NCBI GenBank assembly: GCA_965230955.1
Contig: OZ246404.1
Location: 920,790 to 984,789 of the forward strand
Length of the DNA stretch: 64,000 bases
Source: an uncultured Candidatus Saccharibacteria bacterium
GTDB taxonomy: Bacteria > Patescibacteriota > CALEFQ01
Direction: 5' to 3'
Numbering within the stretch: the stretch's first letter is position 1; every line of letters starts with the position of its first letter. A program made the translations under genes and the position numbers. The notes below the pieces were generated by a model. It was not told the origin of the DNA and did not search any database. It saw only the letters and a program-made list of their open reading frames with translations. Of this stretch, positions 14,784-64,000 are shown in pieces.

Positions 14784-16070
14784 ATGCGACTATTCAACTG
14801 CATTCTAAAAATAACTATAATTACCCTGATAACTGCCTCCCTGGGCGGTGGTTTTGCTATTTCAACCGGCGCGGCCAGCGTGATTGAGCAAAAAAAAGCA
14901 GAGATAAAAAAACTGGAAACTAAAATAACGACACAGAAGCAGGAAATCGCCGAACGCGAAGCCAAGGATTTTAGCCTGGACAACTATCTGGCCAAACTGC
15001 AAATCCAGCTGGCAGCCAACGCCAATGAGCAAAATGTCATGAAAGAACAAGTGGCACTGACCAAATTGGAAATCGAGGACAAAGAAGAATCGATAAAACA
15101 AGAAGAAACTTCCCTGCGCTATCAAAAAGAAATTCTGGCCAGCTATCTGCGCGAATTGAACCGATTTGACCGGACGAATAAAATGCTCAAGCTTTTTGAC
15201 ACGAAAAATTTTTCCGATTTTTATCGCCAGCTCAATTTCACAAAAATCCTTAACGACAAAACCGCCACCGCCACGTCGGAAATCAAAGACGCCCGAGACA
15301 ATTTGGAGCTGGATCGCGATGTTTTAGTGAACAAAAAATTAGAACAAGAAAGCGCTCTGGCTACTCTCAAAGTCTACGAAGCGGAAGCCGATCGCGCCCA
15401 AAAAGAATACCAGCTCATGCAATCCCGCAATGCCAGTGAAATCAAAAGTCTAAATGATGTCATCGCCAGCACCACCGACCAACGCAACCAACTCCAACAG
15501 GAACTTTTTGCCTTGACCAGTGAAGGCCAATCAATAAAATTCGCCGAAGCGGCTAAATACGCCCGTTTCGCCAGCGCCAAAACCGGTATCCGGCCCGAAT
15601 TGATTATGTCCGTGGTAAAACAAGAAACGGATTTCGGAAACAATGTCGGCACCGGCACCTATAAAAATGATATGAATCCGAACCAATGGGATGATTTCGC
15701 CAAAGTCTGCTTGTCGCTCGGCCGCTCACCTGAAGCAACACCGGTCAGCGCCCGACCCAAAAGCTATAGCGGCTGGGGCGGCGCGATGGGTATCGCCCAG
15801 TTTTTGCCCGGCACTTGGCTGGGTATTGCCGGTGAAGTGGCTGAAATCACCGGGCATCAGCCGGCCGACCCCTGGAATCCGACGGATGCTTTTGTGGCGG
15901 TGGGCGTAAAATTCCAAAAGATGGGCGCGTCCAAAAGCGATCGCAACAGTGAATGGGAAGCGGCCGGGCGTTATTTTGCCGGCGGGAATTTCAAAAAATT
16001 TCCCTGGTACGGCGACAATGTCATGAAACGCGCCGATGTCTACGCCGAGCAATTGAAACAAATTCCCTAA
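14784..16070 (+). CDS. secreted coiled-coil protein with a C-terminal lytic transglycosylase (SLT/MltB-like) domain
   Basis: It has an N-terminal signal or TM segment followed by about 250 aa of coiled-coil. The C-terminus contains WGGAMGIAQFLPGTW, the GAMGxxQFxPxTW motif of lytic transglycosylases. Confidence 0.55.
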   Translation: MRLFNCILKITIITLITASLGGGFAISTGAASVIEQKKAEIKKLETKITTQKQEIAEREAKDFSLDNYLAKLQIQLAANANEQNVMKEQVALTKLEIEDKEESIKQEETSLRYQKEILASYLRELNRFDRTNKMLKLFDTKNFSDFYRQLNFTKILNDKTATATSEIKDARDNLELDRDVLVNKKLEQESALATLKVYEAEADRAQKEYQLMQSRNASEIKSLNDVIASTTDQRNQLQQELFALTSEGQSIKFAEAAKYARFASAKTGIRPELIMSVVKQETDFGNNVGTGTYKNDMNPNQWDDFAKVCLSLGRSPEATPVSARPKSYSGWGGAMGIAQFLPGTWLGIAGEVAEITGHQPADPWNPTDAFVAVGVKFQKMGASKSDRNSEWEAAGRYFAGGNFKKFPWYGDNVMKRADVYAEQLKQIP

Positions 16071-47299: not shown

Positions 47300-49519
47300 T
47301 TACTTAATCTCGTATCCCCCCGCCACTTCCCCGCTCAAACGATCAACATACACCGCTTTTTTGCCTTCCGGGAAAGTAAACCAAACGACATAGCAGGGCC
47401 GCTCAAATTCTGACAAGAAAGGTTTCATGGTATTCGGACTGGTATTCATCACCACTTGTTGTTCCGCTTCCACCGGTACGGCTCCCGGATCAACGCCCAA
47501 ATATGCGGCGGCGGTCTCGATGGCCGTCCCGACCTTGATAAATTGAGCCTGGTCTTGCTCGGTAATTTTGTAAATCAGGATCGAAGAATCAATTTCATAA
47601 TCAGGCTGGCGCGGCAAAATCCGGACATAGGAAACCTCCCCACTCTTGCGGGCGTAGAATTCGCTCATCTGATAAAAAGTCGCACTCACCGCCAAATAAG
47701 AACCGACCGGAGGTAAACCCATCTTGGAGTGCCAGCTGGTCACTCGATCTGCCGCCAAGGAATGGCGCGGAACGCCGCCGCCAAAATAATCGACGTAAAT
47801 ATGATCAATATTGTTGTACTCCACCCAGCGCGCCAAGCGATTGAGATCCTGTCCCCAATCAAGATTGGAATCGACTAAATAGCGATAAGCATTCTGTTTC
47901 GAACCGATAGTTTCATTGAAATAAGACAGATAATACGGATAGGCCAGGAAATTTCCGCCCACCAACCAAACCAACAGCATAATCACGAGAATGACGGCAA
48001 TCTTTAATTTGCCGTCTTTTTGGGTCTCCAGCGCTCGTCGCCGCAGATTGCGCAACCAGAAAATAATCGCCCCGCCCAATAGCACATAGATAAACGGGAA
48101 GATCGGCAGCATCCAGCGCAAACCGATATTAGCCTTGGAGCGAATACCGAGGAAGAGGAACATCGCGATCAGAGCCAGCATGACAAATACATCCCAGCGC
48201 AACCACACCAGTTTGCAAAATTTTTCCCACCCTCGACGAGCTCGAGTTGGGGGCGTTATGAAATCCAAAGAATTAACGGCACCGCTCGGCCCATTGATTT
48301 GATAACCGGGAGTGAGTTTCGGCCAATTGCGCCGGACTACCACCAACCCCAGGATCACGGCGATCACGCAGAAAATCATAATCGGGATCGGCGTCTTCAA
48401 GAAAAAAGCATCCAGGTAGTAATGCCACCAACCTTCATTCTGGTAATCACCCATCAAGAAAGCGCTGTTTCCCCCATCCACCCGCGCGAAAACCATCAAG
48501 ACACCCAGCGCATAGGTGGAAAAAGCTTTTCCGCCAGGAATTTGATCCAGCGCGTGCAAAGCGGAACGTCCCAGACTGGCCACCGCGGTATCTTGGGGCA
48601 GTGATTCATCGATCAACTGGGCATGCGTTTCCAGCGACATATTTTGGGTGTGGTGCAAATACGGAATGACGATCAGGAGATGCCCGATGATGAAAATAAG
48701 AATCAAGCCGATCACATAAATCCACAACCGTTTACCCCACTGACTTTTCAGCTTGAGCGATCCCAGCCAATCTTTGATTTGCTCACGCCGAACAAAAACA
48801 GCTACCAGCGCCAAAAGGATAAAGAAGGGAATAAGGGTCACGGCGCTGAATTTGGCCAGAGAAGCCAGCGCGAAAGAAACCGTCGCCGCCAACATCGTCC
48901 CCCAGCCTGGCTTTTTGATGAACTTGGTAAAATAATAAACCGAAATGAACATGAAAACCGTGACGCCGAAATCGGTGGTGACATAATGAGAATGGGCAAT
49001 GATATTCGGACAAAAAGCATAAAGCAAAGTCGCCAATAAACCGGCTTTTACTCCGAATAATTCTTTGGCCCATTTGTAGACAAAAATACCGAGGACGAAC
49101 AGCAACAGCATCGGCAAAAATCTGGTATAGCGAAACATCATTTCCGGATCGTTGCCTCGTTCGTAAATAAAAGTCCAGCCGGTTTGCCATTGGCCGTTTA
49201 TTTCATCGGTCCAAGCGGGAATGTCGTCGGGAAAATCAATATCTTTGACAAACAATAAAGGTAGAGCCGCCAAATCTTTTATCAAAGGCGGGTGTTCCGG
49301 ATTGAGACGATAATCGCCATACTTTAAATAAGAGTAACCGGCCGGAATATGCGCAATCTCATCAACAATGCCCGAATCGCTCGGCTGATCGCCGCCAAAA
49401 GGAATGGTCCCGGCCGAACTGAAGAAAGAAATTAAAAACATGACAAATAACAAAATAGCCACGATGGCGCGAGGGTGCTTGGGATTCCAAGTGTGCCAAG
49501 TTTTTGTTTTTGGTTCCAT
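47300..49519 (-). CDS. PMT/ArnT-family (GT-C fold) phospholipid-carrier-dependent glycosyltransferase with a C-terminal soluble domain
   Basis: It has about 11 N-terminal TM helices with the first-loop D-E motif region (IVDEIAH...), giving a GT39/GT83-like architecture. A C-terminal domain of about 200 aa follows. Confidence 0.65.
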   Translation of the reverse strand: MEPKTKTWHTWNPKHPRAIVAILLFVMFLISFFSSAGTIPFGGDQPSDSGIVDEIAHIPAGYSYLKYGDYRLNPEHPPLIKDLAALPLLFVKDIDFPDDIPAWTDEINGQWQTGWTFIYERGNDPEMMFRYTRFLPMLLLFVLGIFVYKWAKELFGVKAGLLATLLYAFCPNIIAHSHYVTTDFGVTVFMFISVYYFTKFIKKPGWGTMLAATVSFALASLAKFSAVTLIPFFILLALVAVFVRREQIKDWLGSLKLKSQWGKRLWIYVIGLILIFIIGHLLIVIPYLHHTQNMSLETHAQLIDESLPQDTAVASLGRSALHALDQIPGGKAFSTYALGVLMVFARVDGGNSAFLMGDYQNEGWWHYYLDAFFLKTPIPIMIFCVIAVILGLVVVRRNWPKLTPGYQINGPSGAVNSLDFITPPTRARRGWEKFCKLVWLRWDVFVMLALIAMFLFLGIRSKANIGLRWMLPIFPFIYVLLGGAIIFWLRNLRRRALETQKDGKLKIAVILVIMLLVWLVGGNFLAYPYYLSYFNETIGSKQNAYRYLVDSNLDWGQDLNRLARWVEYNNIDHIYVDYFGGGVPRHSLAADRVTSWHSKMGLPPVGSYLAVSATFYQMSEFYARKSGEVSYVRILPRQPDYEIDSSILIYKITEQDQAQFIKVGTAIETAAAYLGVDPGAVPVEAEQQVVMNTSPNTMKPFLSEFERPCYVVWFTFPEGKKAVYVDRLSGEVAGGYEIK

Positions 49520-49761: not shown

Positions 49762-51228
49762 ATGCTTGATTATATGCGCCGGCATTTAAAGAACGCCTTC
49801 ATCCCGCACTCGGGGAATAATCACATTCCTCATGTTTTGCGACGTAAACCGCTGGCTTTTTATAGCCTGCTTTTAATTTCCATCAAAGTACTGGCCATCG
49901 CGGCCGTATTGATGGCTCCCTCCCCCGCTCAGCTGGCTTCGGGAGTGGATGCCAATTTATTGGTTTCCCTGACGAATCAAGAAAGAAGTAGCCGAGGATT
50001 GGATAATCTGAGCACCAATCCGGCATTGATCGCGGCCGCCAAAGCAAAAGCTCAATACATGCTGGACAAAGATATTTTTGAACATGGCGATCCCTGGACA
50101 TTCATTCGCAACGCCGGATACGACTATCTCTATGCCGGCGAAAATATTGCCATGGATTTCCAAACCTCTGACGCCGTGCACAAAGCTTGGATGGCCTCAT
50201 CTTCGCACCGCGCCAATATTTTAAAAACTCAATACGAAGAGATCGGGATCGCGGCCGTGGCCGGCAAATTTCAGGATCATGACACCATCATGGTCGTCCA
50301 AATGTTCGGCTCCCCCAAAGTCAAAGGTTCTACGACAACCACTCCGGTCCCAACCCCTACCCCAAATCTGACCGCCACCCCGACGCCCCCGACACCAACG
50401 GCAACACCGGCAGTGACCACCACCGCGGTAATTACTCCGACCCCGACCGCTGCTCCGGACACAACAGCACCGACAATTCCGACGATAACTTTCCCCACCA
50501 ACACTTCGATACTGTCAGAAGCTTCCGTCATCAAAGGCACAGCCGAATCCGGCAGTGTCATAACGGTTTATGATAACAATATTCCTTTGCAAGAATTGAC
50601 CGCCCTCGACGGAACCTTCACAGTTCAATTGCGCGGCAATCTCAGCGACGGGAAACATACTCTCACGGCCGTCGCCAGAGATTCGGCCGGCAATACCAGC
50701 GCCACAGCAGTACCCGTGACGTTCACGGTCGATACTACCGATCCGGTAATCGACGCCGAGCAGACGACAGCCTTAATCGACCTGGCAAACAATCAAATCG
50801 ATGTCCGGGTCAAAGTAATCGAGCCCAATCTGGCCAGGGTCAGCGCCGGAATCGGCGATCAAATCACCGAACTGACTCCCCTCGACGGGAAATATGCCGG
50901 ATTACTGACCTCGGTCAACATTGATTCGAATGATCCGGCGGTCTTCGTAGAAGCGGTTGATCAGGCCGGACACAAACAGCGCCAGCTGATTACGAATTAT
51001 AATTTTGGCGGCGTCAGTACCGGCAATCAGACGGCCGGCGGACCGCTGGGTGCAACCTTTCTCGGCGGAGTGGCCGATTGGGGCGGATACCTGATTATCG
51101 CTTTTATCATTTTCCTTGTTGTTGCCTTGCTGATTAAAATCTTTGTCCGCGTCCGAATCCAGCATCCGCCGACGATTTTGCATACCTTGGTAGTTTTACT
51201 GCTGGCCGGCGTACTGCTGGTAATATAG
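49762..51228 (+). CDS. secreted CAP (SCP/PR-1, YkwD-like) domain protein with a Thr/Pro-rich linker, Ig-like domains and a C-terminal TM anchor
   Basis: The CAP region contains NQERSSRGL...HGDPWTFIRNAGYDYLYAGENIA...AWMASSSHRANIL. The linker TTTTPVPTPTPNLTATPTPPTPTATPAVTTTAVITPTPTAAPDTTAPTIPT follows, and the C-terminus has a hydrophobic anchor. Confidence 0.6.
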   Translation: MLDYMRRHLKNAFIPHSGNNHIPHVLRRKPLAFYSLLLISIKVLAIAAVLMAPSPAQLASGVDANLLVSLTNQERSSRGLDNLSTNPALIAAAKAKAQYMLDKDIFEHGDPWTFIRNAGYDYLYAGENIAMDFQTSDAVHKAWMASSSHRANILKTQYEEIGIAAVAGKFQDHDTIMVVQMFGSPKVKGSTTTTPVPTPTPNLTATPTPPTPTATPAVTTTAVITPTPTAAPDTTAPTIPTITFPTNTSILSEASVIKGTAESGSVITVYDNNIPLQELTALDGTFTVQLRGNLSDGKHTLTAVARDSAGNTSATAVPVTFTVDTTDPVIDAEQTTALIDLANNQIDVRVKVIEPNLARVSAGIGDQITELTPLDGKYAGLLTSVNIDSNDPAVFVEAVDQAGHKQRQLITNYNFGGVSTGNQTAGGPLGATFLGGVADWGGYLIIAFIIFLVVALLIKIFVRVRIQHPPTILHTLVVLLLAGVLLVI

Positions 51229-52670: not shown

Positions 52671-53231
52671 TTAATATTTCTCCGGCGCCACACCGATGAG
52701 GATTGTCACCGTAGCATTGACGCCTTCGCGAATCTCGCCGGTAATGGCGGTCATATATTTAATTTCATAATCTAGCTTCTGCTCGAAAACCGGATAGCGT
52801 AATTGCTCCAAATCCCCCAGAAAACCGATAAAATCTTTTTTATCACCGCGCACATTGATCACCGCAGGCACCGTCTGCGCCCTTTGCACCGCCACCATAG
52901 TATTTTGGACATCAATGGTATAGGCCAAATTGTACTTGCGGCCGATTTTTTCAATTTGGTCAATCACGCGGAAAGTCTGAACCTGAGGTAAAAGATAATC
53001 ATAAAGTGCCGCCCGTTCACGCTCGGTCTGCTGATAATTTGTTTCAACCTGCATTAACTCCTGGTTGACCTGCAGAGCCGCCTGATAATCACTCTCGGCC
53101 TTTTCATTTTGGGACAAAGCCCGCTCCACTTGCGGCTGAATCCACCCAAACATAACAAGCGCCGCCGACAATAAAACAACGGCAATAATCGCCAAACGGA
53201 TCAATAATAATTTTTTCAGGCTGGCATACAT
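52671..53231 (-). CDS. pilO: type IV pilus assembly protein PilO-like
   Basis: It has an N-terminal TM helix, a coiled-coil and a C-terminal domain, and it directly follows pilMN with a 1-nt overlap. Confidence 0.55.
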   Translation of the reverse strand: MYASLKKLLLIRLAIIAVVLLSAALVMFGWIQPQVERALSQNEKAESDYQAALQVNQELMQVETNYQQTERERAALYDYLLPQVQTFRVIDQIEKIGRKYNLAYTIDVQNTMVAVQRAQTVPAVINVRGDKKDFIGFLGDLEQLRYPVFEQKLDYEIKYMTAITGEIREGVNATVTILIGVAPEKY

Positions 53232-54808
53232 TATTTATTCTTCAGGCTAAAAGTAATTTCAAAATCTATCTTGGTATTCTCGTTGACCGAAAAATTAGAC
53301 AAGGGGTTATTCACATTATTAATTTGCGGCTCGTTTTTCAACTGCTCCTGAAAATTGACAATGTCTTCTCGGCTATTAGCCTGGCCGATCAAACGGCCTT
53401 CGCCTTTTTCGGAAATCGACAGTTTGACAATAACTACTTTGCCGGACGCCATTTTTTCTAAGTTCGCCAATAATTGGCTCCATTGATGTCGGTTTTGCCG
53501 GAGATCAATGTAAGCTCCCAGATAGGTATTGTATTTTTTTATTTCCCGCTCCATCGCCAATTGCCCCTCGGTCTTGGCTGATTGGACCTGAGATAAATCG
53601 GCGTTTATTTTTTTCGTCCGCCAATCCAGATAACCCCACATAACGCCGTAAGATGAAACGAAAATCAGCGCGCAGGCAATCACCCAGCCGGTCAGGACTC
53701 GGATACGCCGCTTTTGCGGATGAGTCACCTCTTCTTCCTGCTTATCTTGTGACACCAGATTCAACTCCCCCAGGACCGGATCAATCCCGAGTCCGCGAAT
53801 AGCCAGACCAATCGCTGTCCCGTAAGATAATTCCTGGCCGGCCAGCAACTGGCGCGAGGATTTATCCAATATTTCCGCCAACTGACCGACAGATACCGGA
53901 AGGGAGGTTTTTCGGCCGAGATATTCCGCTAAACCAGGCAATTGCGCCGCTCCGCCGACCAGTACGATTTTTTCAATATCTTTCGGCTGATCTTCGCGCC
54001 CGAGATAAAAATTTCTAGTCCGCTCGATCTCATTGGCCAGCTGATTCGCTTCGGAAGTCAATATCGTCGAGATTTCTTTTTTCGGCGAATCGGAATTCAA
54101 ACCATACCGGTGCTTCAACTCCCGCGCGTCCGGCGTGGTGACGCCCAAAGCCTGCGCCAGACTGTCCGTCCAGTCATCTCCCCCGCGCTTGAAACTGGAA
54201 GTAAATTGGATTAATCCCTGGCTATAGACGGAAAAAGTCGTATTACGGGCGCTGATATCAACCAGTAACACCCGCTGACCGGAAGATATTTGTCCCGGCA
54301 AGGCTCGCACCAATGCTTTCGATTCCATATCGAAAGCGAGCGCTTTCAGGCCAATTGTTTTGAAAATTTGGTAATAAGTATCCGCCCAGGCCCTGGTAAT
54401 CGCCGCGGCCAAAGCCGGACGCTGACCGGAAACCGTTTGCCCTGCTTCCCAATCCCAATCCATGCGCTCAATATCCTCGGAAACGTGCGAGGCCAGATCC
54501 CATTTGATCATTTCGGCTGTTTTTTCCGGCGGAGCCTGGGGTATTGTCGTCACGTGCAGATATACTTTTGATTCGGGCAAAGAAATTATGGCTAAGCGAG
54601 ATCGAATTGGCTCGGGCTTGGCCTGGCGGAGCAGAGACTGAATAATTTTCTGTAATTGAATCGGATCTCTGATTTCCCCATTGCCAATCACGCCGGACGG
54701 TAAAACAACCTGTCCGGCCGAGGATATGACCAAGCGGCCGCCGCGAATTTTACCGGCTACGGCTTTGATCGACTTCTCTCCGATGTCTAAACCAAAAGCG
54801 GGTAACAT
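53231..54808 (-). CDS. pilMN: fused PilM (actin-like ATPase) - PilN type IV pilus assembly protein
   Basis: The N-terminal 350 aa contain GLDIGEKSIKAV...LLVDISARNTT...IVLVGGAAQLPGL, which is PilM. A TM helix and a PilN-like periplasmic domain follow. Confidence 0.7.
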   Translation of the reverse strand: MLPAFGLDIGEKSIKAVAGKIRGGRLVISSAGQVVLPSGVIGNGEIRDPIQLQKIIQSLLRQAKPEPIRSRLAIISLPESKVYLHVTTIPQAPPEKTAEMIKWDLASHVSEDIERMDWDWEAGQTVSGQRPALAAAITRAWADTYYQIFKTIGLKALAFDMESKALVRALPGQISSGQRVLLVDISARNTTFSVYSQGLIQFTSSFKRGGDDWTDSLAQALGVTTPDARELKHRYGLNSDSPKKEISTILTSEANQLANEIERTRNFYLGREDQPKDIEKIVLVGGAAQLPGLAEYLGRKTSLPVSVGQLAEILDKSSRQLLAGQELSYGTAIGLAIRGLGIDPVLGELNLVSQDKQEEEVTHPQKRRIRVLTGWVIACALIFVSSYGVMWGYLDWRTKKINADLSQVQSAKTEGQLAMEREIKKYNTYLGAYIDLRQNRHQWSQLLANLEKMASGKVVIVKLSISEKGEGRLIGQANSREDIVNFQEQLKNEPQINNVNNPLSNFSVNENTKIDFEITFSLKNK

Positions 54809-54810
54809 AT

Positions 54811-55212
54811 TTATGGTTCGGTTTCAATAATATTGACTAATCCAGTATCGGTATAAAAAAGCGCTTGCAACTGCCTGGTCACCTGCCCCTTAACGCCGGT
54901 CACGACGACCTGCCGATCTTCGCCGGATTCCGTAATGACGATCGTAATCGTCACACCATTTAGGTAATCCATCGGACCGTCGGTATACGGTAAAGAAATT
55001 GCCGGCGGCCAAGCGGGATCTTTTTTAATACGAGTCAGCGTATCGTTTAGCGCGGCTTCACAGGCGGCAAAGACTTGATTACCTTTGGTCCCGTCATCCG
55101 TCATGCGAAATTCACGCAAACTCATGGCCGCAATGGCGATCGCCACAATCAAACCGACCACCGTCAATGCGGTAATGCCGATAATCGCCGCTTGTCCGCG
55201 CTGATTTTTCAT
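54811..55212 (-). CDS. pilus-associated hypothetical protein (hydrophobic N-terminus, no canonical prepilin motif)
   Basis: It is a 133-aa protein with an N-terminal hydrophobic helix, and it sits within the pilin gene block. Confidence 0.35.
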   Translation of the reverse strand: MKNQRGQAAIIGITALTVVGLIVAIAIAAMSLREFRMTDDGTKGNQVFAACEAALNDTLTRIKKDPAWPPAISLPYTDGPMDYLNGVTITIVITESGEDRQVVVTGVKGQVTRQLQALFYTDTGLVNIIETEP

Positions 55213-55722
55213 TTAATGCCTTCTTAAGGTGATAATGGAATCCAATTCGCTACTGGCCGGCGGATCAATATTGACGCTTTCAACCACGATGTTTACCGTG
55301 AAACTGACCGGCCCGGCTACCGGATCCATGACGGAAATATCAAAAGCAGACACGGCCACCATATCGCTGGTCAGCTGCTGGCTCTGGCCGTTACGATGGA
55401 CAAACATGGCTGTCTGTCCTCCCTGCCCCGCCGCCAGATAGAAACGAACATCGCCTTCAAATGTTTGAAAAGTTATTTCGTGCGCTTGATAAGGTGTTCC
55501 GACACTGTTGGCCCAGCGGCCGGTGAATTGCAGACGCTCCATAATCAGCCGGGCATTTTGCTGGGTATCGCGATTACCTTGGGCACTGCGGTTATTTTTC
55601 ATAATATCCAGCGCAAAGGAAGAGACGACCGTCATGGCCACGATCAAAATCGAGATGTAGACCAGTAATTCTACCAAGGTGAAGCCGCGCTGATTAAATT
55701 TAGCCTTTACCACTTTCATCAT
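55213..55722 (-). CDS. minor (pseudo)pilin with a prepilin-type N-terminal cleavage/methylation domain
   Basis: It contains NQRGFTLVELLVYISILIVAM, the class III signal peptide motif G-F-T-L-x-E. Confidence 0.65.
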   Translation of the reverse strand: MMKVVKAKFNQRGFTLVELLVYISILIVAMTVVSSFALDIMKNNRSAQGNRDTQQNARLIMERLQFTGRWANSVGTPYQAHEITFQTFEGDVRFYLAAGQGGQTAMFVHRNGQSQQLTSDMVAVSAFDISVMDPVAGPVSFTVNIVVESVNIDPPASSELDSIITLRRH

Positions 55723-55726
55723 TTTT

Positions 55727-58288
55727 TTAGGGGCTACAAGCGCCTTCGTAAGCAATAATAACTTTATTCAATACTGTCGGCTGGACATTGGTCGCACTGA
55801 CCAAGAAAGCTCTGACGGAAATAGTTGTTCCGCCGGCTGAAAAAGTTGCCAGATGATCATTAACCTCGGCTTGGGTACTATAGTTAGTTGCGCCGGCCAA
55901 CGCCCAATCCGATCCGTTCCAATACTGCCAACTGGCGCCGTCATCATTGCTTAATTGATAGTGAACGATTCCGGTGCCGGAGCTGTCGGCGGAAAAAGAA
56001 TACCAATTTGTCAGTCCCGTTATCGTTTTGGCTGTTTTGGGAGTTATGGCCGGACCATCGGTGGCATAACCCTGAATTGAATGGCCGGCATTATCAGTCT
56101 GGCGAAAATCATCAACCGCGTACCAACCCTCTACGGCTTGGGAAGAATTATCGACCGCCCGCAGATAAACCGGCTGGTTCTGATAATCCGCCATATTCAG
56201 TATCACTTCGCTCCAACTCCCGCTATTGGGCGCGTTAACGCGTTGCAATTCTTCGTTGTTGCTGGCTCGAAACAGCGCGACGTAATTATTGCCCTGACCG
56301 TTGGTGGCAAAATTACCGGCGGTGACTTTGACCAGTTCCGGTGTCAAACTGTTGACGTCGGTGACAAACACGATTCGATACTGGAAATAGCGATTATTGG
56401 AAACATTGGATAGAGCTAAAGAAGGAAAAGAAGCCACGGAATTGTATTGTTCGGAATAAAAAGTAGTGCCGGTTCCGTCCGGACCGATAAAAGACTCGCC
56501 CGCGCAAACAGCGTCATCACACGAACGCACTTGATAACGTAAATGCAGAATTCCGCGACGATAATGATCATTGGCTTCGGTCGCGGAAATGGCCCGATTG
56601 AAAACAGCGGCCTCGTCGATTCTGCCCGCCAAAGGATAATTTTTTACTGTCGGATTTACATTTTCTCCCAGTTGCGCCCCGACATTCAACTCGCTGTTCG
56701 TGTTTCGGGCGGTAATGGCTGAACCGTTGGAATTATCCAGCTGGCCGTCGAAATAAATTTTCATACCCGTTCCGTCCCAGGCACCGACCACGTGATACCA
56801 TTGCCCCGCGTTGACCGTCGTATTCGATTGCAAAGTATGGCTGACTCCTCCGCCATCAACCAACTTCAAAGCGACTCGCCCATTGTCCCAAAGCTGCAGC
56901 GAATAACTTTCATCGGATAAATCGGCTTTTGTGCCCTTATGGATAATTCCGCCGAAATTTTTGTAACTATCGAGGTGGATCCAAGCCTCCACCGTGCCGT
57001 CGCTGGTCAAATCCAAACTGCTATCTTGCGCCACGGCCACCCGGTTACTCACGCCGTTGAAATTAAGCGCGGTATTGAATTTTCCCGACAAGCCATAAGC
57101 CGCCCCGGAATTCAGCCCATTGTTGCTCCGTCCCGAACTATCCCAGAGCGTGCCGCTACCTTCATTAAAATGAAACAGAAGCATATTGCCGCTCATGTTG
57201 ACATTACCGCTGGGATAATCGGTTTCCGTTTGAGCGCTGTTTGGCAATTCCTTATCAGTCGGGCGCTGGGAAAGCCAAGCGATAGTTTTCCACGATTTAA
57301 CACTGCCCGCATCTTTAATCGCCGAAGTATAAGTGCCGGTACCATTGACCAAACCTTGAGCCGTCAGTTGCAACCAGTTACTGATATTATTATATTCGGT
57401 ATCGGCATACGTCCCGGTGTTAAATTGAGCTTGGTTATCATCAGTGAAATTTCCTACCGGGAAAGAAGTGGTCATTTGACTCCAGCCCCGATGGCGGAAA
57501 CGCAGTTGCTGTCCGGCCGAAGTAAAGACACTGCTTTGAATACTCCCCAAGAGCGTACTATCAGCCTCGGTACTGGCGACAAAATTTCCTCCGCCGCTAT
57601 TAACTACCTGCCAGGCATTACCCTGAACGGTCCAATTGGTAAAATCACTGGTTTGAAAATCGCCATTCGGAATAGCCGCCGCCGTGCGGTCGATCAACTG
57701 CGCTTGGCCGCCGGTCACTTCTATTTTATCCGCGTCGTAATCATAATCAGAGCCGTAAGTATAGGGCCAGTTGACATAGCAGACTTCCCAATTATCCAAA
57801 TACTCTTCCAGCGTCACCGATTGCGTACTCCCCCGTTCGGACCATTCCACCGCCACCGTCACCAAGCGAGATTCCGGGTCCACGACGGTTTCACTCCCGC
57901 AGACAGCCAGTTCATTGGTACTGACTTGACGGCAAACCGGAGACAGAGAAATGCGCCGGGTAAACACCCCGATCACTTCCCCGCCGGCAGACTCGACCAA
58001 GGACCAGTTGTCACCGCTGGGCTGGAGACGATAAATTCGGCCATCGGTGCTATAGCCGCTGAAGGTTGACCAGCTCTGCTCTTTTAGATTCGTCAGGGCT
58101 TCAATCGCCCCACTCCCGAGTGTGGTCGCTTGCCAGCGGTGCTCGCTCCAGGCGACATAGTGCATCGACTGGATCATAAGTCCGGTGATCCCGGAAACCA
58201 CAATCGTGGCGATAGCCAAAGCAATCAGCAATTCAATTACTGAAAATCCGCGCTGGCGTTTTATTTTTTTTGTCGGACTATATAACAT
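55727..58288 (-). CDS. giant pilin-like protein: prepilin N-terminus plus a LamG/concanavalin A-like lectin domain (853 aa)
   Basis: The N-terminus reads KRQRGFSVIELLIALAIATIV. The middle region contains GTVEAWIHLDSYKNFGGIIHKG...YSLQLWDNGRVALKL...GQWYHVVGAWDGTGMKIYFDGQL, which is the LamG/Laminin_G_3 pattern. Confidence 0.6.
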   Translation of the reverse strand: MLYSPTKKIKRQRGFSVIELLIALAIATIVVSGITGLMIQSMHYVAWSEHRWQATTLGSGAIEALTNLKEQSWSTFSGYSTDGRIYRLQPSGDNWSLVESAGGEVIGVFTRRISLSPVCRQVSTNELAVCGSETVVDPESRLVTVAVEWSERGSTQSVTLEEYLDNWEVCYVNWPYTYGSDYDYDADKIEVTGGQAQLIDRTAAAIPNGDFQTSDFTNWTVQGNAWQVVNSGGGNFVASTEADSTLLGSIQSSVFTSAGQQLRFRHRGWSQMTTSFPVGNFTDDNQAQFNTGTYADTEYNNISNWLQLTAQGLVNGTGTYTSAIKDAGSVKSWKTIAWLSQRPTDKELPNSAQTETDYPSGNVNMSGNMLLFHFNEGSGTLWDSSGRSNNGLNSGAAYGLSGKFNTALNFNGVSNRVAVAQDSSLDLTSDGTVEAWIHLDSYKNFGGIIHKGTKADLSDESYSLQLWDNGRVALKLVDGGGVSHTLQSNTTVNAGQWYHVVGAWDGTGMKIYFDGQLDNSNGSAITARNTNSELNVGAQLGENVNPTVKNYPLAGRIDEAAVFNRAISATEANDHYRRGILHLRYQVRSCDDAVCAGESFIGPDGTGTTFYSEQYNSVASFPSLALSNVSNNRYFQYRIVFVTDVNSLTPELVKVTAGNFATNGQGNNYVALFRASNNEELQRVNAPNSGSWSEVILNMADYQNQPVYLRAVDNSSQAVEGWYAVDDFRQTDNAGHSIQGYATDGPAITPKTAKTITGLTNWYSFSADSSGTGIVHYQLSNDDGASWQYWNGSDWALAGATNYSTQAEVNDHLATFSAGGTTISVRAFLVSATNVQPTVLNKVIIAYEGACSP

Positions 58289-58722
58289 TATTCCGGTTTA
58301 ATGATTTCGATTTTTAATTCATACCGATTATTGTCGGCCCCGTCATCATCTTTCATTATATCGCGATTTAAGTCGCTCAGTGAGGCTGACACCACGGCGG
58401 TCAGATCATTGAGTCGATCGTATTTAACGTGCGCCGGGACGGCGGGCAAATAATCGGACACTAATTCCGACAGCTGAGTCGGCAATTTACCTTTATCAAA
58501 ACCATAGGCTTCGAGAGCGATCCGAGAATCTTCCACCTCGCGCCGCAATTCAATATCCGTCTGCGTCTGCTGATCGATTTTTTCTTGTTTGACCAAATCG
58601 AAGTCACCTTCTTTTGTGGTATCCCCGGAGAACCATCCGCCGTATTGCCAGCCGTAAAACACCACGCCCACCGCGGCCGCAATAACAAGTACAATGATAA
58701 TTACCAAACCAATCTTATTCAT
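58288..58722 (-). CDS. small membrane-anchored protein with a GspG/pseudopilin-like C-terminal region but no G-F-T-L-x-E motif
   Basis: It starts MNKIGLVIIIVLVIAAAVGVVFY. It contains KGKLPTQLSELVSDYLPAVP, which resembles the GspG-type Y..yP..L..L...yl...P segment. Confidence 0.4.
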   Translation of the reverse strand: MNKIGLVIIIVLVIAAAVGVVFYGWQYGGWFSGDTTKEGDFDLVKQEKIDQQTQTDIELRREVEDSRIALEAYGFDKGKLPTQLSELVSDYLPAVPAHVKYDRLNDLTAVVSASLSDLNRDIMKDDDGADNNRYELKIEIIKPE

Positions 58723-58745: not shown

Positions 58746-58829
58746 AGGTAACAAGTAACAGGTACCAAGGAACAAATAGGAATAATTTTTTCCTTTTTGT
58801 TACTTGTTACTTGTTACCTGTTACTTGTT
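58746..58829. repeat. intra-operon imperfect hairpin (~30-bp arms) built from GTAACAA/GTAACAG units
   Basis: The left arm is AGGTAACAAGTAACAGGTACCAAGGAACAAA and the right arm is TTTGTTACTTGTTACTTGTTACCTGTTACTTGTT. The left arm matches the repeat at 16126-16155 (reverse complement) with one mismatch in 30 nt. Confidence 0.5.
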
Positions 58830-61762
58830 TAAGAACCAAAATAGTACGCCCCCATATCATTCCTTGTACTATCGGGATTATTGTAGAAAGGATCGGGATC
58901 ACCGGCGTGAATACAGGGTGAACCAGCTTGCAGATGAAAATCACTGCCCGGCGCGACAAACAGCGGGTTCTGCGAAATGGAATTTAATCCCTGATAAGTC
59001 GCTCCTTGTCCGGTGTAGTTGGTCGTGTTGCTCCAAACATCGGCGTAATTGTTGTTCAAATTAGCATTGCCGTTGGTCACATTGAAACCAGCCGAATTGT
59101 TGGTGATGATGTTGTTCCGCAATTTTGTTGCCCCGTCAAAACGATCCAGCTGAATACCGATCCCGGCCAACGTGCCGTAAATCGTATTGTTGTAATAATG
59201 AGTACCGGTGTTTCCCCGCTGAGTATAAATCCCGTTGCGCACGTTATTGAACAGATTGTAATAGACTTTGAAATTCTGCGGACGTAGAGCATAGACTCCC
59301 GTGCAAGCCGCTACAGTGCAATTGCTGACCGTATTCCGGTAGAATTGCGTACCGTTGGGCCGATCGAAATAATTGTAATTGGTGTTGTCATGGATCCGGT
59401 TGTCGTGAATCAGCGAATTGGTATCTGTGGTCGTATAAATTGCCCGCTGGTTATTATAAATATCATTTTGGTATACTTCCACACTCACGCTATTGTTCAG
59501 ATAGAGGCCATAGCTGCCGGTATTATTACGAATTATATTGTCATATATTTTTGTCCCGGTATTACCAGCGTCATAAACCGCTTGGGTAGTATTATTTCTG
59601 ATAGTGTTATTCCGAATTATATTACTGTTGTTGGCGCCGGCTTGCAGGTAGATTCCCGTGCCGACCGCATAAATTTCCAAATTTTCATAAATATCATTAC
59701 TGGTATTGTTCTGTGAACGAATACCATTCGTAGCGCTGGTTAATTTCAAACCGGTGATACGGAGATAATTGGTTTGTGTCATCTGAAAACAATTGGTCGT
59801 ACCGTCGATGATGACATTGGTATCGCCCGTCTTGTTCATGAATTCGGTATAGTTTCCCGCCGTCCCAGATTTGGCCGCGCTCAAAGTAACTTGCTCGGCA
59901 TAAGTACCATTGGCGATACAAACATTATCCCCGCCCGACATCGCGGTCACGGCCTCGGCAATCGTTTTAAAAGCAGTCGCCCAACTCAAGCCATTGCCCG
60001 AAACCGGGCGCGACTGATCCACATGCCAATTACAAGACTGAGTCGTGTAACTAAAAGACCAAGTTTGATTGCTCCACCGCCCATAAGAGTGATTATCCAC
60101 CGCTTCCACTTTCCAGTAGTAAGTGCCGGCTGAGGCCAGCGTCCCGGTATAAGTGCTGACACCTAGTCCGCTGACATTCATTTCCGGCGAGCCAAAGGCC
60201 GGATCATTGTCGACCATAATATGATAGGTCACGGTATCGCCGGGATCGGGATCAAGGGTGTCTTCCCAGTCGAAAGCCATCGGCATAGAAGAAATCGAAG
60301 CGCCGCTGGCGGGAGTCAGCAGATTGAAAGCATTCGGCTGGCGATTGGTATAAAAATTCCAATTTTGTTCAATCGCCCAGGTGGAACCGCCGCGAGTGTC
60401 ATCGGCTCGCACCCGCCAGTAGTAAAACTGTCCCGCGGTCAGGGCGGAAGGAATGGTATAAGTGCTAGGGATAAGACCGCCGACTTCTGTCTTGGTGGTA
60501 AATGTCGGATCGGTTGAATACCATAAAGTATAAGTCACGCTGTCGCCCGGATCAGGGTCGGTACTGTCATCCCAGTCCAGCGTCGGAGTCGTCGTGTTGA
60601 TATACTCTCCCGACACCGGAGCAAGCAAATGAAACGCACCGGGAGCGACATTGGCATCAACTGTCAGCGAACGATACGTTCGGCCGCTCGGCTGATCTGT
60701 GCCGTAAGTGATTCCGCCTAGTCCGTCCTCGGCCCGCACGCGCCAATAGTTAGTCGTATAATTAGTCAGGGCTTCTCCCGGCTTCAGCGTATATTCCGAT
60801 AAGCTGATGCCGGTAATGGTAGTCGGCGAAGAAAAAGAGGAATTATCATCATGCTGGAATGTATAGGAAACGGGATTACCGTCGGGATCCGTGGTATCTT
60901 CCCAATCAAATGACGGTGTCAGAGTAATGGTTTCATGATAAGCGTCAGCCGGCGACAAAAGATAAAACGGTTCGGGCGGATCATTGAGAAGCGCGTTGAC
61001 ATACCAATTTTTTTCTTCGCTCCAGCGCTCGCCCGCCGAACCTATGGCTTTCACCTTCCAATAATTTCGACGGCCATTAACCAGTTGTTGCCCGGAGTTC
61101 AGAGTATAAGAAGTCGAATTAATGCCGGTGATTTCGGTATAAGTGCCAAAATTAGGATCGGTCGAATGCCATAAAGTATATGACACGGCATTAGGCGCCG
61201 CGCTCCAGAAAAAAGTCGGAGTCAAGGTATAAGAAGTGCTTTGGTTCGCCGGCGAAGACAAAGAGAAAGCGCCGGGCAGGCCGCTGTCATTTAAGTCATA
61301 TTCACCAATCCGCCCCTCACTGCTGACACTGATTTCTTTTTGCTGGCCGGTACCATCGAGTTCTAAGGTGACGTGCCCGTAATTGGGCGTGAGCCCAGTC
61401 AGTTTATCGAACACCACCTGATCCACGGGCGGCGGAGCAAAACTGATGGCGCTGAAACTAAGAACAGTGGGAACATCAAAGGTTTCCAGCACTGTCCCGC
61501 CGGCGTAGTCATTTCCTTTAAATAAATAGAATTTGTCGGCGCCGGAATTGATCTCGAAGAAAACACCGTATTTTTCTCCGTCTTTGGCCGCGATGGACTG
61601 GCTCTGAGCCAGACGCAGGGTCGAAATGATCTGCTGAGCCGTCACATCCAGCTGGGACGATCGCTGATAAAAGCTATAACTCACGGTCACCACGGCCGAC
61701 AAAATACCGATCACCGCCACGGTGACCAGAAGTTCAATTAAAGTGAATCCGCGTCGAGACAT
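58829..61762 (-). CDS. giant pilin-like protein: prepilin N-terminus plus four FN3-like repeats plus a C-terminal right-handed parallel beta-helix (pectate-lyase/NosD-like) domain (977 aa)
   Basis: The N-terminus reads MSRRGFTLIELLVTVAVIGILSAV. Four repeats of about 100 aa carry the motif LxxPxxxxxxxxTPTFxWxDxxDPDxxxVxYTxxxxxDxxF. The C-terminus has NNTIRNNT-type beta-helix rungs and ends in PLFVAPGSDFHLQAGSPCIHAGD. Confidence 0.65.
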   Translation of the reverse strand: MSRRGFTLIELLVTVAVIGILSAVVTVSYSFYQRSSQLDVTAQQIISTLRLAQSQSIAAKDGEKYGVFFEINSGADKFYLFKGNDYAGGTVLETFDVPTVLSFSAISFAPPPVDQVVFDKLTGLTPNYGHVTLELDGTGQQKEISVSSEGRIGEYDLNDSGLPGAFSLSSPANQSTSYTLTPTFFWSAAPNAVSYTLWHSTDPNFGTYTEITGINSTSYTLNSGQQLVNGRRNYWKVKAIGSAGERWSEEKNWYVNALLNDPPEPFYLLSPADAYHETITLTPSFDWEDTTDPDGNPVSYTFQHDDNSSFSSPTTITGISLSEYTLKPGEALTNYTTNYWRVRAEDGLGGITYGTDQPSGRTYRSLTVDANVAPGAFHLLAPVSGEYINTTTPTLDWDDSTDPDPGDSVTYTLWYSTDPTFTTKTEVGGLIPSTYTIPSALTAGQFYYWRVRADDTRGGSTWAIEQNWNFYTNRQPNAFNLLTPASGASISSMPMAFDWEDTLDPDPGDTVTYHIMVDNDPAFGSPEMNVSGLGVSTYTGTLASAGTYYWKVEAVDNHSYGRWSNQTWSFSYTTQSCNWHVDQSRPVSGNGLSWATAFKTIAEAVTAMSGGDNVCIANGTYAEQVTLSAAKSGTAGNYTEFMNKTGDTNVIIDGTTNCFQMTQTNYLRITGLKLTSATNGIRSQNNTSNDIYENLEIYAVGTGIYLQAGANNSNIIRNNTIRNNTTQAVYDAGNTGTKIYDNIIRNNTGSYGLYLNNSVSVEVYQNDIYNNQRAIYTTTDTNSLIHDNRIHDNTNYNYFDRPNGTQFYRNTVSNCTVAACTGVYALRPQNFKVYYNLFNNVRNGIYTQRGNTGTHYYNNTIYGTLAGIGIQLDRFDGATKLRNNIITNNSAGFNVTNGNANLNNNYADVWSNTTNYTGQGATYQGLNSISQNPLFVAPGSDFHLQAGSPCIHAGDPDPFYNNPDSTRNDMGAYYFGS

Positions 61763-61766
61763 TTTT

Positions 61767-62987
61767 TTATTGAACCGTACTGATGACGGAATAAATCGGA
61801 GTAATAATGGATAGCGCCAAGATACCGATGCCGGCGCCGACCACCAGCATCAAGATCGGCTCGATCAACGAGGAAAGAGATTTGAGCTCGGTCACAACTT
61901 GATTGCTATATAATTCCGCCAGCCGGTCGAGAATAACGGTCACTTCACCGGTTCGCTCCCCCACTCGCACCATCCCGATGACCGTGGGCGGAAAAAGGTT
62001 TTTCTCCGCTTCCATCGATTCGGTCAGCGCCACACCCTTGGTCACCCGCTCGGCCACGCGCTTCAGCGCGTTGCCGTACAAACGATCCTTCATCGTATCG
62101 CCCGTCACGGTGATCGCTTCCACGATCGGCATGCCGCTTTTTACCAAATTGGCCAGCGTGCCGGAAAAAGCCGCCATGGCGATTTTTTCTTTGACTTGGT
62201 GAATCAGCGGCCAGCGACTCCAAAAAACGCTGCTCGATGTTTTCACCGACGGAAAACGATTGAGCCACCAAATAAAGACAATCAACCCGACCAGTACAAG
62301 CAGAATCAGCCACCAAAAATTGACGATGAAATCGCTGGTCGCCAGCAATAATCTGGTTGTACCCGGCAATTCCGCGCCGTTTTGCTGTAAAACATCGGCA
62401 ATTTTCGGCACGACAAAAATCATCAGTGCAAAACCGACGCCGATCATGGCGCAAACAATGACAATGGGATAAAGCAGTGCGCCGCGGACCTGGCTGGTCA
62501 ACTCGTAACGACGCCTCAACTCCGAAGCCAAATAGCGCAGATTCTTTTCCAAAATTCCGCTGACCTCGCCGGCACGTACCACTTGGATAAAAACTCGGTC
62601 GAAAACTTCCGGGTGTTTGGAAAAAGACGCCGAGAGCGGAATGCCCGAAGCCACATCCTTGCCGGCATCACGCAATATCTGGCGCAATTTGGCGCTGCGA
62701 AATTGATCGCTGACTATCTGCAAAGCTTCCACCAGCGGCAGACCGGCTTTTAGCATGGCCGCCAATTGCTCCACCAAAAGAGTTTTGTTCAGCAAAGAAA
62801 CCTGGCCGATTTCCATCGACCATAAGCTGCTGCGCCGACCTTCTTTTTCTTCCATCCGCGCGATGAAAAAACCCTGGGACTGCAATTGCTGAACCGCCGT
62901 CGTTTTATCGGCCGCGATTATTTTTCCTTTTTGGGTCTCCCCGTGTTTGGAGAGCACCTCGTATTCAAATTCCGGCATATAATCCAA
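61767..62987 (-). CDS. pilC: type IV pilus assembly protein PilC (GspF family platform protein)
   Basis: It has the duplicated GspF domain architecture with three TM helices, and it contains LLYPIVIVCAMIGVGF and GMPIVEAITV. Confidence 0.85.
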   Translation of the reverse strand: MDYMPEFEYEVLSKHGETQKGKIIAADKTTAVQQLQSQGFFIARMEEKEGRRSSLWSMEIGQVSLLNKTLLVEQLAAMLKAGLPLVEALQIVSDQFRSAKLRQILRDAGKDVASGIPLSASFSKHPEVFDRVFIQVVRAGEVSGILEKNLRYLASELRRRYELTSQVRGALLYPIVIVCAMIGVGFALMIFVVPKIADVLQQNGAELPGTTRLLLATSDFIVNFWWLILLVLVGLIVFIWWLNRFPSVKTSSSVFWSRWPLIHQVKEKIAMAAFSGTLANLVKSGMPIVEAITVTGDTMKDRLYGNALKRVAERVTKGVALTESMEAEKNLFPPTVIGMVRVGERTGEVTVILDRLAELYSNQVVTELKSLSSLIEPILMLVVGAGIGILALSIITPIYSVISTVQ

Positions 62988-63106: not shown

Positions 63107-64000
63107 CTAGCGAATGACTCTGAGGATTTCGTCGATCGACGTCTGCCCTTCAAAAGCTTTTTGGATGCCGTCTTCCAACATCGTCTGCATGCCGGCGGCT
63201 ACCGCCGCCTCGGCAATAACGCTCGAATCCTTGCGTTCGGCGATAAGCTCCCGAATTTTGTCGTTAATTTCCAAAACTTCATAGATACCGACCCGCCCGC
63301 GATAACCGGATCCGCCGCAACGATCACAACCCTTGCTCCGGAAAAATCGTAAATTACTCCAGTCTTTTTTGGCGATAACTTGGAGTTTCACCATGTGATT
63401 CAAAGCGGCTTCCAAATCGATACCCGCCTGCCGGCTGGACAGAGATTTTAGATCGACTTTGTAACTTTCCATGCAGAGCGGACAGAGCCGCCGGACCAAG
63501 CGTTGGCCGACCGCTACATTGACGGTGGAAGATATCAAAAAAGGCTGAATCCCCATATCAATCAAACGCGGCAGAGTACCGGCGGCATCATTGGTATGGA
63601 GCGTGGACAGCACCAAGTGGCCGGTCAGGGCGGAATGGATGGCGATTTCCGCGGTTTCGGTATCGCGAATTTCGCCGATCATGATGATATCCGGATCCTG
63701 GCGTAGAATCGAACGCAGACCATTCGCGAAAGAAATTCCCACACCGGGATTAACCTGAATTTGATTGACCCGCTCAATGCTATACTCTATCGGATCTTCC
63801 ACCGTGCTGATGTTTACGTCTTCGGTATTGAGCATATTGAGCACCGTATAGAGCGTAGTCGTCTTGCCGGAACCGGTCGGCCCCGTCACCAGCAACATGC
63901 CATGCGGGCGCTCAATCGCGCGCTTGATAATATCTAAATTTTTTCCTTTTAGCCCCAAATCTTCCAGGGAATAGCGTTTGGATTCTTCCGGCAGAAGGCG
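63107..64000 (-). CDS. pilB: type IV pilus assembly ATPase PilB (GspE family), C-terminal part; the N-terminus lies beyond the window end
   Basis: It has a Walker A motif (LVTGPTGSGKTTTLY), an Asp box, a His box and the tetracysteine motif (CPLC...CDRCGGSGY). The reading frame stays open to position 64000. Confidence 0.85.
   Translation of the reverse strand, partial: RLLPEESKRYSLEDLGLKGKNLDIIKRAIERPHGMLLVTGPTGSGKTTTLYTVLNMLNTEDVNISTVEDPIEYSIERVNQIQVNPGVGISFANGLRSILRQDPDIIMIGEIRDTETAEIAIHSALTGHLVLSTLHTNDAAGTLPRLIDMGIQPFLISSTVNVAVGQRLVRRLCPLCMESYKVDLKSLSSRQAGIDLEAALNHMVKLQVIAKKDWSNLRFFRSKGCDRCGGSGYRGRVGIYEVLEINDKIRELIAERKDSSVIAEAAVAAGMQTMLEDGIQKAFEGQTSIDEILRVIR

Follow-up and report, generated by a model that had tools for sequence, protein, structure and literature searches.

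Modular pilins, as defined by Raynaud et al. 2021 (PMC8179133), carry the N-terminal IPR012902 motif together with at least one domain that is not specific to type IV pilus (T4P) biology, and form an established and widespread class with over 1,200 members in 264 architectures, many of the members coming from Candidate Phyla Radiation (CPR) phyla, including Saccharibacteria. The subject of this work is a gene at positions 58829-61762 (minus strand) of a 64-kilobase (kb) stretch of contig OZ246404.1 from an uncultured Candidatus Saccharibacteria bacterium, this whole stretch of 64,000 nucleotides (nt) being referred to below as the window. In the list of open reading frames (ORFs) of the window the gene forms a single frame encoding 977 amino acids (aa), and its product, here called the giant pilin, falls under the above definition, with N_methyl, Ig_Rha78A_N and Beta_helix/NosD domains that all score above their Pfam cut-offs. 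It is a new, uncharacterized modular pilin, not a new kind, and we hold it, with a probability of about 65%, to be a modular type IV minor pilin that is borne at the pilus tip and most likely recognizes a surface polysaccharide. Two entries bear on its novelty: IPR039448 (Pfam PF13229) stands for the right-handed beta-helix domain and IPR007742 for the beta-helix domain of NosD. Dataset S1 of the modular-pilin survey (PMC8179133) lists the architectures IPR012902-IPR039448 (three proteins) and IPR012902-IPR005543-IPR039448-IPR007742 (two proteins), as well as fusions of pilin and FN3, 12 proteins with one FN3 domain plus others. A first-pass annotation, made by a model from the letters of the DNA, had known of no characterized pilin with this architecture; this stands insofar as none of the listed proteins is characterized, whereas the pairings of pilin with beta-helix and of pilin with FN3 were already on record (PMC8179133). 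A full-text literature search for pilin, beta-helix and Patescibacteria in combination found nothing.

In Streptococcus sanguinis, PilB, a pilin with a vWA domain, acts as pilus adhesin (PMC8179133), and PilC, a pilin with a ConA-like lectin domain, binds glycans and makes up the tip complex PilABC with PilA and PilB (PMC9934059). These two proteins and the giant pilin are alike in having a prepilin motif, a small pilin module and C-terminal modules foreign to T4P; their operons are alike in encoding two modular pilins, one with a ConA/Laminin_G lectin module, tip display being predicted for the giant pilin; and their organisms are alike in being of monoderm type, with no secretin limiting size. 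The giant pilin differs in its cargo of about 815 aa in five domains, compared to one domain in S. sanguinis, in its long FN3 stalk in place of a short loop, in its terminal module, a beta-helix of the pectin-lyase fold and as such unstudied on any pilin, and in its carrier, which is clearly of the GspH/FimU class; it is known from sequence and prediction. The arrangement that we propose for its tip would resemble the 'open wings' of the PilABC complex (PMC9934059). Within the same phylum, PilX1 (a beta-jelly-roll) and PilX2 (a seven-bladed beta-propeller) of strain TM7x are proposed tip adhesins, and host binding by this strain depends on cell-wall glycans (PMC11623550, Grossman et al. 2024). 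Both are, like the giant pilin, large minor pilins with C-terminal accessory domains, and the combined Gly, Ala, Ser and Thr (GAST) content of the latter (35.8%) resembles that of these exposed TM7x pilins (PMC11623550); their cargo folds are different, and they are without the canonical PilD signal that the giant pilin possesses. Beta-solenoids are also found on Thermus ComZ (PMC6561018) and on cyanobacterial PilX/HpsA (bioRxiv 10.64898/2026.02.12.705559), and the likeness here is that of a beta-solenoid on a tip-located minor pilin, a location that is presumed for the giant pilin. In ComZ and cyanobacterial PilX the beta-solenoids are insertions, whereas the giant pilin carries a right-handed pectin-lyase-fold helix at the C-terminus, behind FN3 modules and on an H-class pilin. 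Unlike the giant pilin, GspH/EpsH of type II secretion and FimU of Pseudomonas type IVa pili are free of cargo and measure about 140-170 aa. What is particular to the giant pilin is thus the size of its cargo, the five-domain layout, the long FN3 stalk, the terminal pectin-lyase-fold helix, the H/FimU-class carrier and the conserved pairing with a lectin-bearing pilin.

Architecture and relatives of the giant pilin

The ORF, its coordinates and the motifs quoted in the first-pass annotation are all found where expected in the translation, with MSRRGFTLIELLVTVAVIGILSAV at residues 1-24, LLSPADAYHETITLTPSFDWEDTTDPDGNPVSYTF at residues 268-302, PLFVAPGSDFHLQAGSPCIHAGD at residues 933-955, and NNTIRNNT and YDNIIRNNT in the rungs of the beta-helix at about 718-748. 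Pfam places N_methyl at residues 2-25 (29.8 bits, cut-off 21.2) and finds Ig_Rha78A_N, an FN3/Ig-like domain (44.4 bits, cut-off 27.4), Beta_helix (57.9 bits, cut-off 25.9) and NosD (45.5 bits, cut-off 23.6), and the NCBIfam model IV_pilin_GFxxxE for prepilin cleavage and methylation scores 32.1 bits (cut-off 16.3). An AlphaFold2 model, the check that had been proposed, was built from an alignment of 21 relatives, reached a mean predicted local distance difference test (pLDDT) score of 83.9 and comprises an alpha1 helix (residues 14-58), a beta-sheet head (65-156), four beta-sandwiches and a beta-helix (about 580-945) with pLDDT mostly above 90. Domain searches and structure prediction both show, then, the FN3-like and beta-helix domains that had been read from the sequence. 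Of the roughly 950 aa that were said to follow the signal these parts are real; residues of about 30 to 162, overlooked at the time, are a complete pilin head. When the full sequence was searched with phmmer against the PDB, the only matches were to the alpha1N helix of pilins. An artefact of assembly or gene fusion is ruled out, as five public contigs that were assembled independently, among them one of 1.136 Mb, encode the identical 977-aa protein and as the architecture is conserved down to 37% identity.

The prepilin site reads MSRRG/FTLIE (the slash marking the predicted cleavage site), and Gly-1, Phe+1 and Glu+5 are invariant in 8/8 full-length relatives, all of which keep G/FTL[IV]E; as had been supposed, the N-terminus carries a genuine substrate motif of prepilin peptidase and is no generic anchor. 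What follows is laid out as in pilins: alpha1N is hydrophobic, alpha1 is long, and the head, an antiparallel beta-sheet packed on alpha1C, has the GspH-type fold. Pfam GspH (PF12019) matches five of the eight family members (best E 1.9e-5), and GspH is also the best NCBIfam match of the giant pilin's N-terminus. A profile of the pilin module, run against 1.84 billion representative proteins, retrieves after the family itself chiefly pilins of ordinary size (about 150-170 aa) that match over their whole length, besides a group of proteins of about 280-300 aa and a small number of giants. With ordinary small pilins as its nearest relatives, the module is therefore a standard minor-pilin carrier to which cargo has been added, and the combined evidence points to a carrier that is specifically a minor pilin of the GspH/FimU class and hence to the priming complex at the tip. 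In other proteins this carrier is joined to different cargo, Laminin_G or DUF7305. One of these, P0241 (601 aa), joins a GspH-like pilin carrier to DUF7305; another, P0102 (3,333 aa), has a GspH-like pilin module at residues 34-193, then a Reelin-subrepeat-B-like domain and three Laminin_G_3 stretches, and thus exceeds the giant pilin in size while using a carrier of the same type.

Between head and beta-helix lie the four tandem modules of about 100 aa that the first-pass annotation had described. With the boundaries given in Table 1 they are mutually homologous (pairwise BLASTP E 8e-8 to 2e-23) and 31-45% identical among themselves in a MAFFT alignment, which establishes them as true internal repeats; self-BLAST of the whole protein detected no internal repeats, and it was the pairwise comparison of excised modules that revealed them. 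Foldseek against the PDB matches the stalk with LAR FN1-4 (E 8e-13), fibronectin FN7-10 (E about 1e-8) and contactins, and these tandem-FN3 matches confirm the FN3 fold of the stalk as modeled. The Pfam label of the modules is Ig_Rha78A_N, not fn3 itself, and the module alone is common in surface proteins other than pilins, in Elusimicrobia, Zixibacteria, KSB1 and others. If each FN3 domain adds about 3.5 nm, the stalk would measure roughly 12-16 nm.

The combination of FN3 and beta-helix is found in only about 9-12 clusters among 5.8 billion clustered proteins, and the relatives of the giant pilin are either 37-84% identical over the full length or N-terminally cut fragments. A scan of GTDB with one genome per species returned three loci with a relative extending past the FN3 region, two of them full-length and one truncated where its contig ends; two of these loci are recorded as Candidatus Saccharibacteria. 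The CPR-like organism suggested from the sequence fits, as those syntenic homologs that come with an organism name are Candidatus Saccharibacteria metagenome-assembled genomes. The gene begins 4 nt after the stop codon of pilC, which bears out its reported place directly downstream of pilB-pilC, and all five homologs with flanking DNA follow pilB-pilC directly within the pilus operon, with none found outside pilus loci. Identity to the syntenic homologs runs from 84% down to 37%. The gene order of the operon is kept in loci L002, L003 and L004 (on the same contig as L001) and in L005 up to the contig end, with fewer downstream genes matched in the distant loci.

Three variants depart from this layout. 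P0006 (1,285 aa) is a homolog of the giant pilin whose C-terminus continues into the Laminin_G module and the C-terminal domain of the neighboring 853-aa pilin, in the same order (E 5e-13 and 9e-20), and the beta-helix and Laminin_G cargos would therefore act on one structure. In L002 the homolog of the 853-aa pilin matches its N-terminal 275 residues only, with no Laminin_G match, and P0074, which is N-terminally cut, has two complete beta-helices in tandem after the FN3 region. As judged from their sequences, these variants show cargo that is shuffled on constant carriers. P0005, P0074 and P0075 were also considered as stand-alone enzymes, a possibility that we rejected: they have no start Met and begin inside an FN3 module, and thus look like cut fragments.

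Possible binding or cleavage by the beta-helix

The beta-helix is right-handed and parallel and has the pectin-lyase fold, which it shares with PL31 alginate lyase (score 25.7), the GH120 xylosidase XylC (24.4), the PL9 pectate lyase Pel9A (23.8), a cyanophage tailspike (23.4), NosD (21.8), the pneumococcal adhesin PfbA (18.5), the alginate epimerases AlgE/AlgG and Klebsiella-phage capsule depolymerases. The family profile aligns with Pel9A (E 1.5e-9) from an N-terminal cap common to both (YVD...G.G.S...PF.TI..A......GD.V.I..G.Y.E) to a shared tail (SP.I.AG...D.GA), which in the family of the giant pilin is conserved as SPCIxxGDPDPFYNDPDGxRxDxGA. Searched on its own, the beta-helix finds relatives labeled just 'parallel beta-helix repeat' or DUF1565 and none with a functional name. 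Its likeness to phage tailspikes and capsule depolymerases is at the level of the fold only, and tblastn of the giant pilin against 50,697 phage records gave no match at E <= 1e-3.

Conservation within the giant pilin is lowest in rungs 661-850, which contain large indels and are 22-36% identical to the more distant relatives, compared to mostly 43-69% in the flanking segments of the beta-helix. It is in the central rungs that the groove of beta-helix enzymes normally sits. Within rungs 661-850 only Y666 and Y730 are conserved, and the family alignment has no conserved Asp, Glu, Lys, Arg or His there. From Pel9A we took the four Ca-binding Asp and the Lys base as catalytic set, located by the ADGF, DDGFD and GFK motifs with a residue numbering that we take to be that of Jenkins et al. 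2004; in the profile alignment the giant pilin has G, Q, R, Y and C at these five positions, which vary across the family, a comparison limited by the proneness of beta-helix alignments to register errors and by the comparable variability of phage depolymerases. The motifs DPH[D/E] of AlgE/AlgG, NTD/GHG/RIK of GH28, WxDH of PL1 and DDGFD of PL9 occur in none of 12 related sequences.

By sequence comparison, the known catalytic constellation of beta-helix enzymes appears to be absent from the giant pilin, and a carbohydrate-binding function is therefore better supported than a carbohydrate-active one, which shifts the first-pass proposal of a carbohydrate-active or carbohydrate-binding module toward binding. 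Given display on a pilus, we somewhat favor a variable polysaccharide-binding face, and regard a conserved catalytic site as rather unlikely on the pattern of conservation. The strongest rival of our reading retains the tip display and makes the beta-helix an active depolymerase, a polysaccharide lyase or glycoside hydrolase that would cut capsular or cell-wall polysaccharide of the host in the manner of a phage tailspike and so open the way to the host surface for the episymbiont. The fold relatives are in line with this proposal; the replaced and variable Pel9A positions, the missing enzyme motifs, the lack of conserved acidic or basic residues in rungs 661-850 and the lack of phage relatives all speak against it, with the unreliable register of the alignment as proviso, and we judge it unlikely. 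Catalytic cleavage of the polysaccharide that is recognized is no more than a possibility; at the pilus tip, the giant pilin would probably serve to grip, or possibly to cut, a polysaccharide. We know of no earlier pilus-borne polysaccharide depolymerase, and the giant pilin would be the first if its beta-helix were catalytic.

Proposed display at the pilus tip

Display on a type IV filament, as the first-pass annotation had it, is supported computationally on each of the three points where it could have failed: the domains are present, the N-terminus is that of a prepilin and synteny with the pilus genes is conserved. The motif G/F..xE occurs in just three ORFs of the 64-kb window, and downstream of the giant pilin are found two further pilins with this motif and a PilX_N-like protein without Glu5, all conserved in L002 and L003. 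We propose the following sequence of events. Prepilin peptidase would cut the giant pilin after Gly5, with the alpha1 helix retaining it in the membrane, and through alpha1 and Glu5 it would dock with the three other minor pilins of the operon to form a filament-priming complex, which would place it at the pilus tip or slightly below. As an H/FimU-type subunit, it would there serve as adapter between the tip complex and the shaft of major pilins. Carried on the FN3 stalk, the beta-helix would lie alongside the tip or reach past it, with the Laminin_G lectin module of the 853-aa pilin as its neighbor. There it would most likely recognize a surface polysaccharide, probably one in the capsule or cell wall of the bacterium that hosts this Saccharibacteria-like episymbiont, and the variable central rungs would set ligand specificity. 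In a monoderm-type CPR cell there is no outer-membrane secretin, and the size of a pilin cargo would therefore not be limited, an argument that follows the reasoning of Raynaud et al. The assembly steps are deduced from the HIJK / FimU-PilV-PilW-PilX priming model (PMC9934059; bioRxiv 10.64898/2026.02.12.705559).

A number of points weigh against this reading. Processing, incorporation into a filament and the nature of the ligand are inferred from sequence, structure prediction and the assembly model, and host recognition is argued by analogy, the lifestyle of this uncultivated organism being deduced from its taxonomy alone. The AlphaFold2 model has a predicted template modeling (pTM) score of only 0.48, and the relative placement of its domains is unreliable for that reason. 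The giant pilin itself scores below the curated cut-offs of the families for which its carrier class is named, with 17.3 bits against a cut-off of 21 for Pfam GspH (residues 41-150, over the full profile, 1-108/108) and 42.9 bits against a cut-off of 80 for NCBIfam GspH (TIGR01708); its adapter role is an inference, and the assignment of the three neighboring pilins to the I, J and K classes is based on weak matches. A six-frame motif scan found no small major pilin in the window, and there is none within 10 kb of the giant pilin gene on the public contig. PilD and PilT are absent as well, both from the larger ORFs of the window that were scanned and from the same 10 kb on the public contig.

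The absent major pilin is also an argument for placing the giant pilin on the cell body, where it would never enter a filament, the class III signal would serve export and anchoring, and the FN3 stalk would span the wall to expose the beta-helix. Sugar-binding proteins of the archaeal 'bindosome' provide a parallel, four-FN3 stalks are typical of wall-spanning surface proteins, and the very same FN3 module is found in many surface proteins that are not pilins. A mere signal anchor, however, does not call for the complete and conserved GspH/FimU-type head that the giant pilin has, nor for an invariant Glu5, the residue required for docking of subunits in filaments; the gene lies always within a pilus assembly operon among minor pilins, and characterized modular pilins belong to the pilus (PMC8179133). 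We consider display on the cell body improbable. A slightly poorer fit is a short pseudopilus of the competence or type II secretion type, with the giant pilin as ComGD/GspH-type subunit and its cargo at or within the wall, where it could remodel the cell's own or the host's wall during uptake of DNA or nutrients. The N-terminus matches ComGD (E 1.9e-6) as well as GspH, the order of ATPase, platform protein and pilins resembles that of a comG operon, the locus has no PilT gene, and the T4P of TM7x have been discussed in connection with DNA uptake. Against this, the operon encodes a PilM-PilN fusion, a PilO-like protein and a PilB bearing MshEN, which we take to be the layout of type IVa pili and not that of Com systems. 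Two lectin- or enzyme-like cargos on long stalks moreover fit poorly with a pseudopilus embedded in the wall, and a monoderm has no outer membrane across which to secrete. That the giant pilin would be the major subunit of a 'bottle-brush' filament, with stalk and beta-helix on every subunit, is highly improbable despite its position as first pilin gene after pilC, the major-pilin position in comG-type operons, and the lack of a small major pilin nearby, since its head is of the GspH/FimU minor-pilin class, a cargo of 800 aa on each subunit would lead to steric clashes in the pilus lattices that are known, and the major pilin of the second TM7x pilus sits in a separate locus.

For the way in which ultrasmall CPR/Saccharibacteria episymbionts recognize their bacterial hosts and hold on to them, T4P and glycan binding have been implicated experimentally in only one cultivated strain, TM7x. 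As a probably tip-borne minor pilin with a canonical PilD-type signal and a lectin-bearing partner pilin, the giant pilin is a concrete and testable candidate from an uncultivated environmental lineage. A more far-reaching and tentative proposal is that the beta-helix is a pilus-borne, tailspike-like module for receptor recognition, and possibly depolymerization, whose hypervariable rungs may choose the host polysaccharide and with it the host bacterium. If true, the host range of an episymbiont would be set at the pilus tip by cargo swaps on a constant GspH-type carrier, swaps that are suggested by the Laminin_G fusion in P0006, the double beta-helix of P0074 and the Laminin_G-less neighbor in L002. 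To the modular-pilin concept the giant pilin adds a case in which, besides cap subunits, an adapter of the H/FimU type would bear very large cargo; carriers of this type also bear different cargos, in proteins as long as 3,333 aa.

The pilus operon and its surroundings

The features of the giant pilin and of the operon are collected in Table 1. On the minus strand, the genes are arranged in the order pilB, pilC, giant pilin, 144-aa ORF, 853-aa pilin, 180-aa pilin, PilX-like, PilM-PilN and PilO-like, with most junctions in the window spaced by no more than 4 nt or overlapping.

Table 1. Segments of the giant pilin and genes of the pilus operon, in window coordinates.
Feature	Position	Strand	Basis and remarks
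Class III (prepilin) leader peptide MSRRG, residues 1-5	61748-61762	minus	Predicted cleavage after Gly5; N_methyl, IV_pilin_GFxxxE, invariant Gly-1
Pilin module, GspH/FimU class, residues 6-162	61277-61747	minus	Phe+1, Glu+5, alpha1N, alpha1 to residue 58, eight-strand beta head 65-157
FN3-like module 1, residues 163-259	60986-61276	minus	Internal repeat, modeled beta-sandwich, Foldseek tandem FN3 (E about 1e-12)
FN3-like module 2, residues 260-373	60644-60985	minus	Internal repeat, model, Foldseek
FN3-like module 3, residues 374-474	60341-60643	minus	Best Pfam Ig_Rha78A_N stretch (388-468); repeat, model, Foldseek
FN3-like module 4, residues 475-574	60041-60340	minus	Internal repeat, model, Foldseek
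Right-handed parallel beta-helix (pectin-lyase fold), residues 575-977	58832-60040	minus	DUF1565/Pel9A-type N-terminal cap, about 13 rungs
Hypervariable central beta-helix rungs, residues 661-850	59213-59782	minus	Candidate ligand-specificity face; low identity, large indels
PilB assembly ATPase, C-terminal part	63107-63958	minus	Listed ORF starts at internal TTG; gene continues beyond window end
PilC platform protein (T2SSF)	61767-62987	minus	Pfam T2SSF, E 4.9e-58
144-aa membrane-anchored protein	58288-58722	minus	Three-ortholog alignment, synteny
Second modular minor pilin, 853 aa	55727-58288	minus	RG/FSVIE, Pfam N_methyl, Laminin_G_3 (E 4.6e-25)
Ordinary-sized minor pilin	55213-55755	minus	RG/FTLVE; Pfam N_methyl, weak pseudopilin matches
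PilX/GspK-like 133-aa protein	54811-55212	minus	Weak PilX_N match (E 0.0066); kept in L002 and L003
PilM-PilN fusion, 525 aa	53231-54808	minus	Pfam PilM_2 (E 2.4e-34), PilN
PilO-like protein	52671-53231	minus	Same-position gene in L002 carries PF04350 PilO

The complete PilB, as encoded on public contig L029, is a protein of 574 aa with MshEN and T2SSE domains. The 144-aa protein follows the giant pilin in every syntenic locus and has an N-terminal membrane anchor, no G/FxxxE prepilin motif and no match in Pfam or NCBIfam; its three orthologs share the motifs A-L-x-x-Y...P..L..L...Y and M..DDG.D...YE. Behind its pilin part, the 853-aa pilin combines the Laminin_G_3 lectin-like module with a weak TafC-like match and a distinct C-terminal domain. 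The start of the small pilin is ambiguous, with 180 aa when read from TTG and 168 aa in the public gene call, and the leader is basic either way. The 133-aa PilX-like protein has a hydrophobic N-terminus without Glu5, as expected of a cap subunit of the GspK/PilX type, and the PilM-PilN fusion and PilO-like protein (52671-54808) are the pilus alignment subcomplex. Scans for a promoter and a terminator of the operon gave scores at or below shuffle expectation.

Immediately upstream of pilB, beyond window position 64000, lie genes for a response regulator and for three sensor proteins with PAS/HisKA or CHASE4 domains (L029 40-6841), and the same sensor set is found upstream of pilB in the 37%-identical Saccharibacteria locus (L001 172-6988), which suggests conserved two-component control of the pilus operon. 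Just downstream of the operon lie a gene for a CAP/Big_6/Big_13 surface protein (49762-51228, plus strand) and one for a protein glycosyltransferase of the PMT (dolichyl-phosphate-mannose-type) family (47300-49519, minus strand), which might glycosylate pilins or further proteins of the surface. Elsewhere the window is ordinary chromosome, with rpoB, rpoC, recA, uvrA, uvrC, groEL, ftsK and genes for glycolytic enzymes. It further encodes two candidate surface or cell-wall-acting proteins, namely an FG-GAP repeat protein of 472 aa (1442-2860, minus strand) and an SLT_2 lytic-transglycosylase-domain protein of 428 aa (14784-16070, plus strand).

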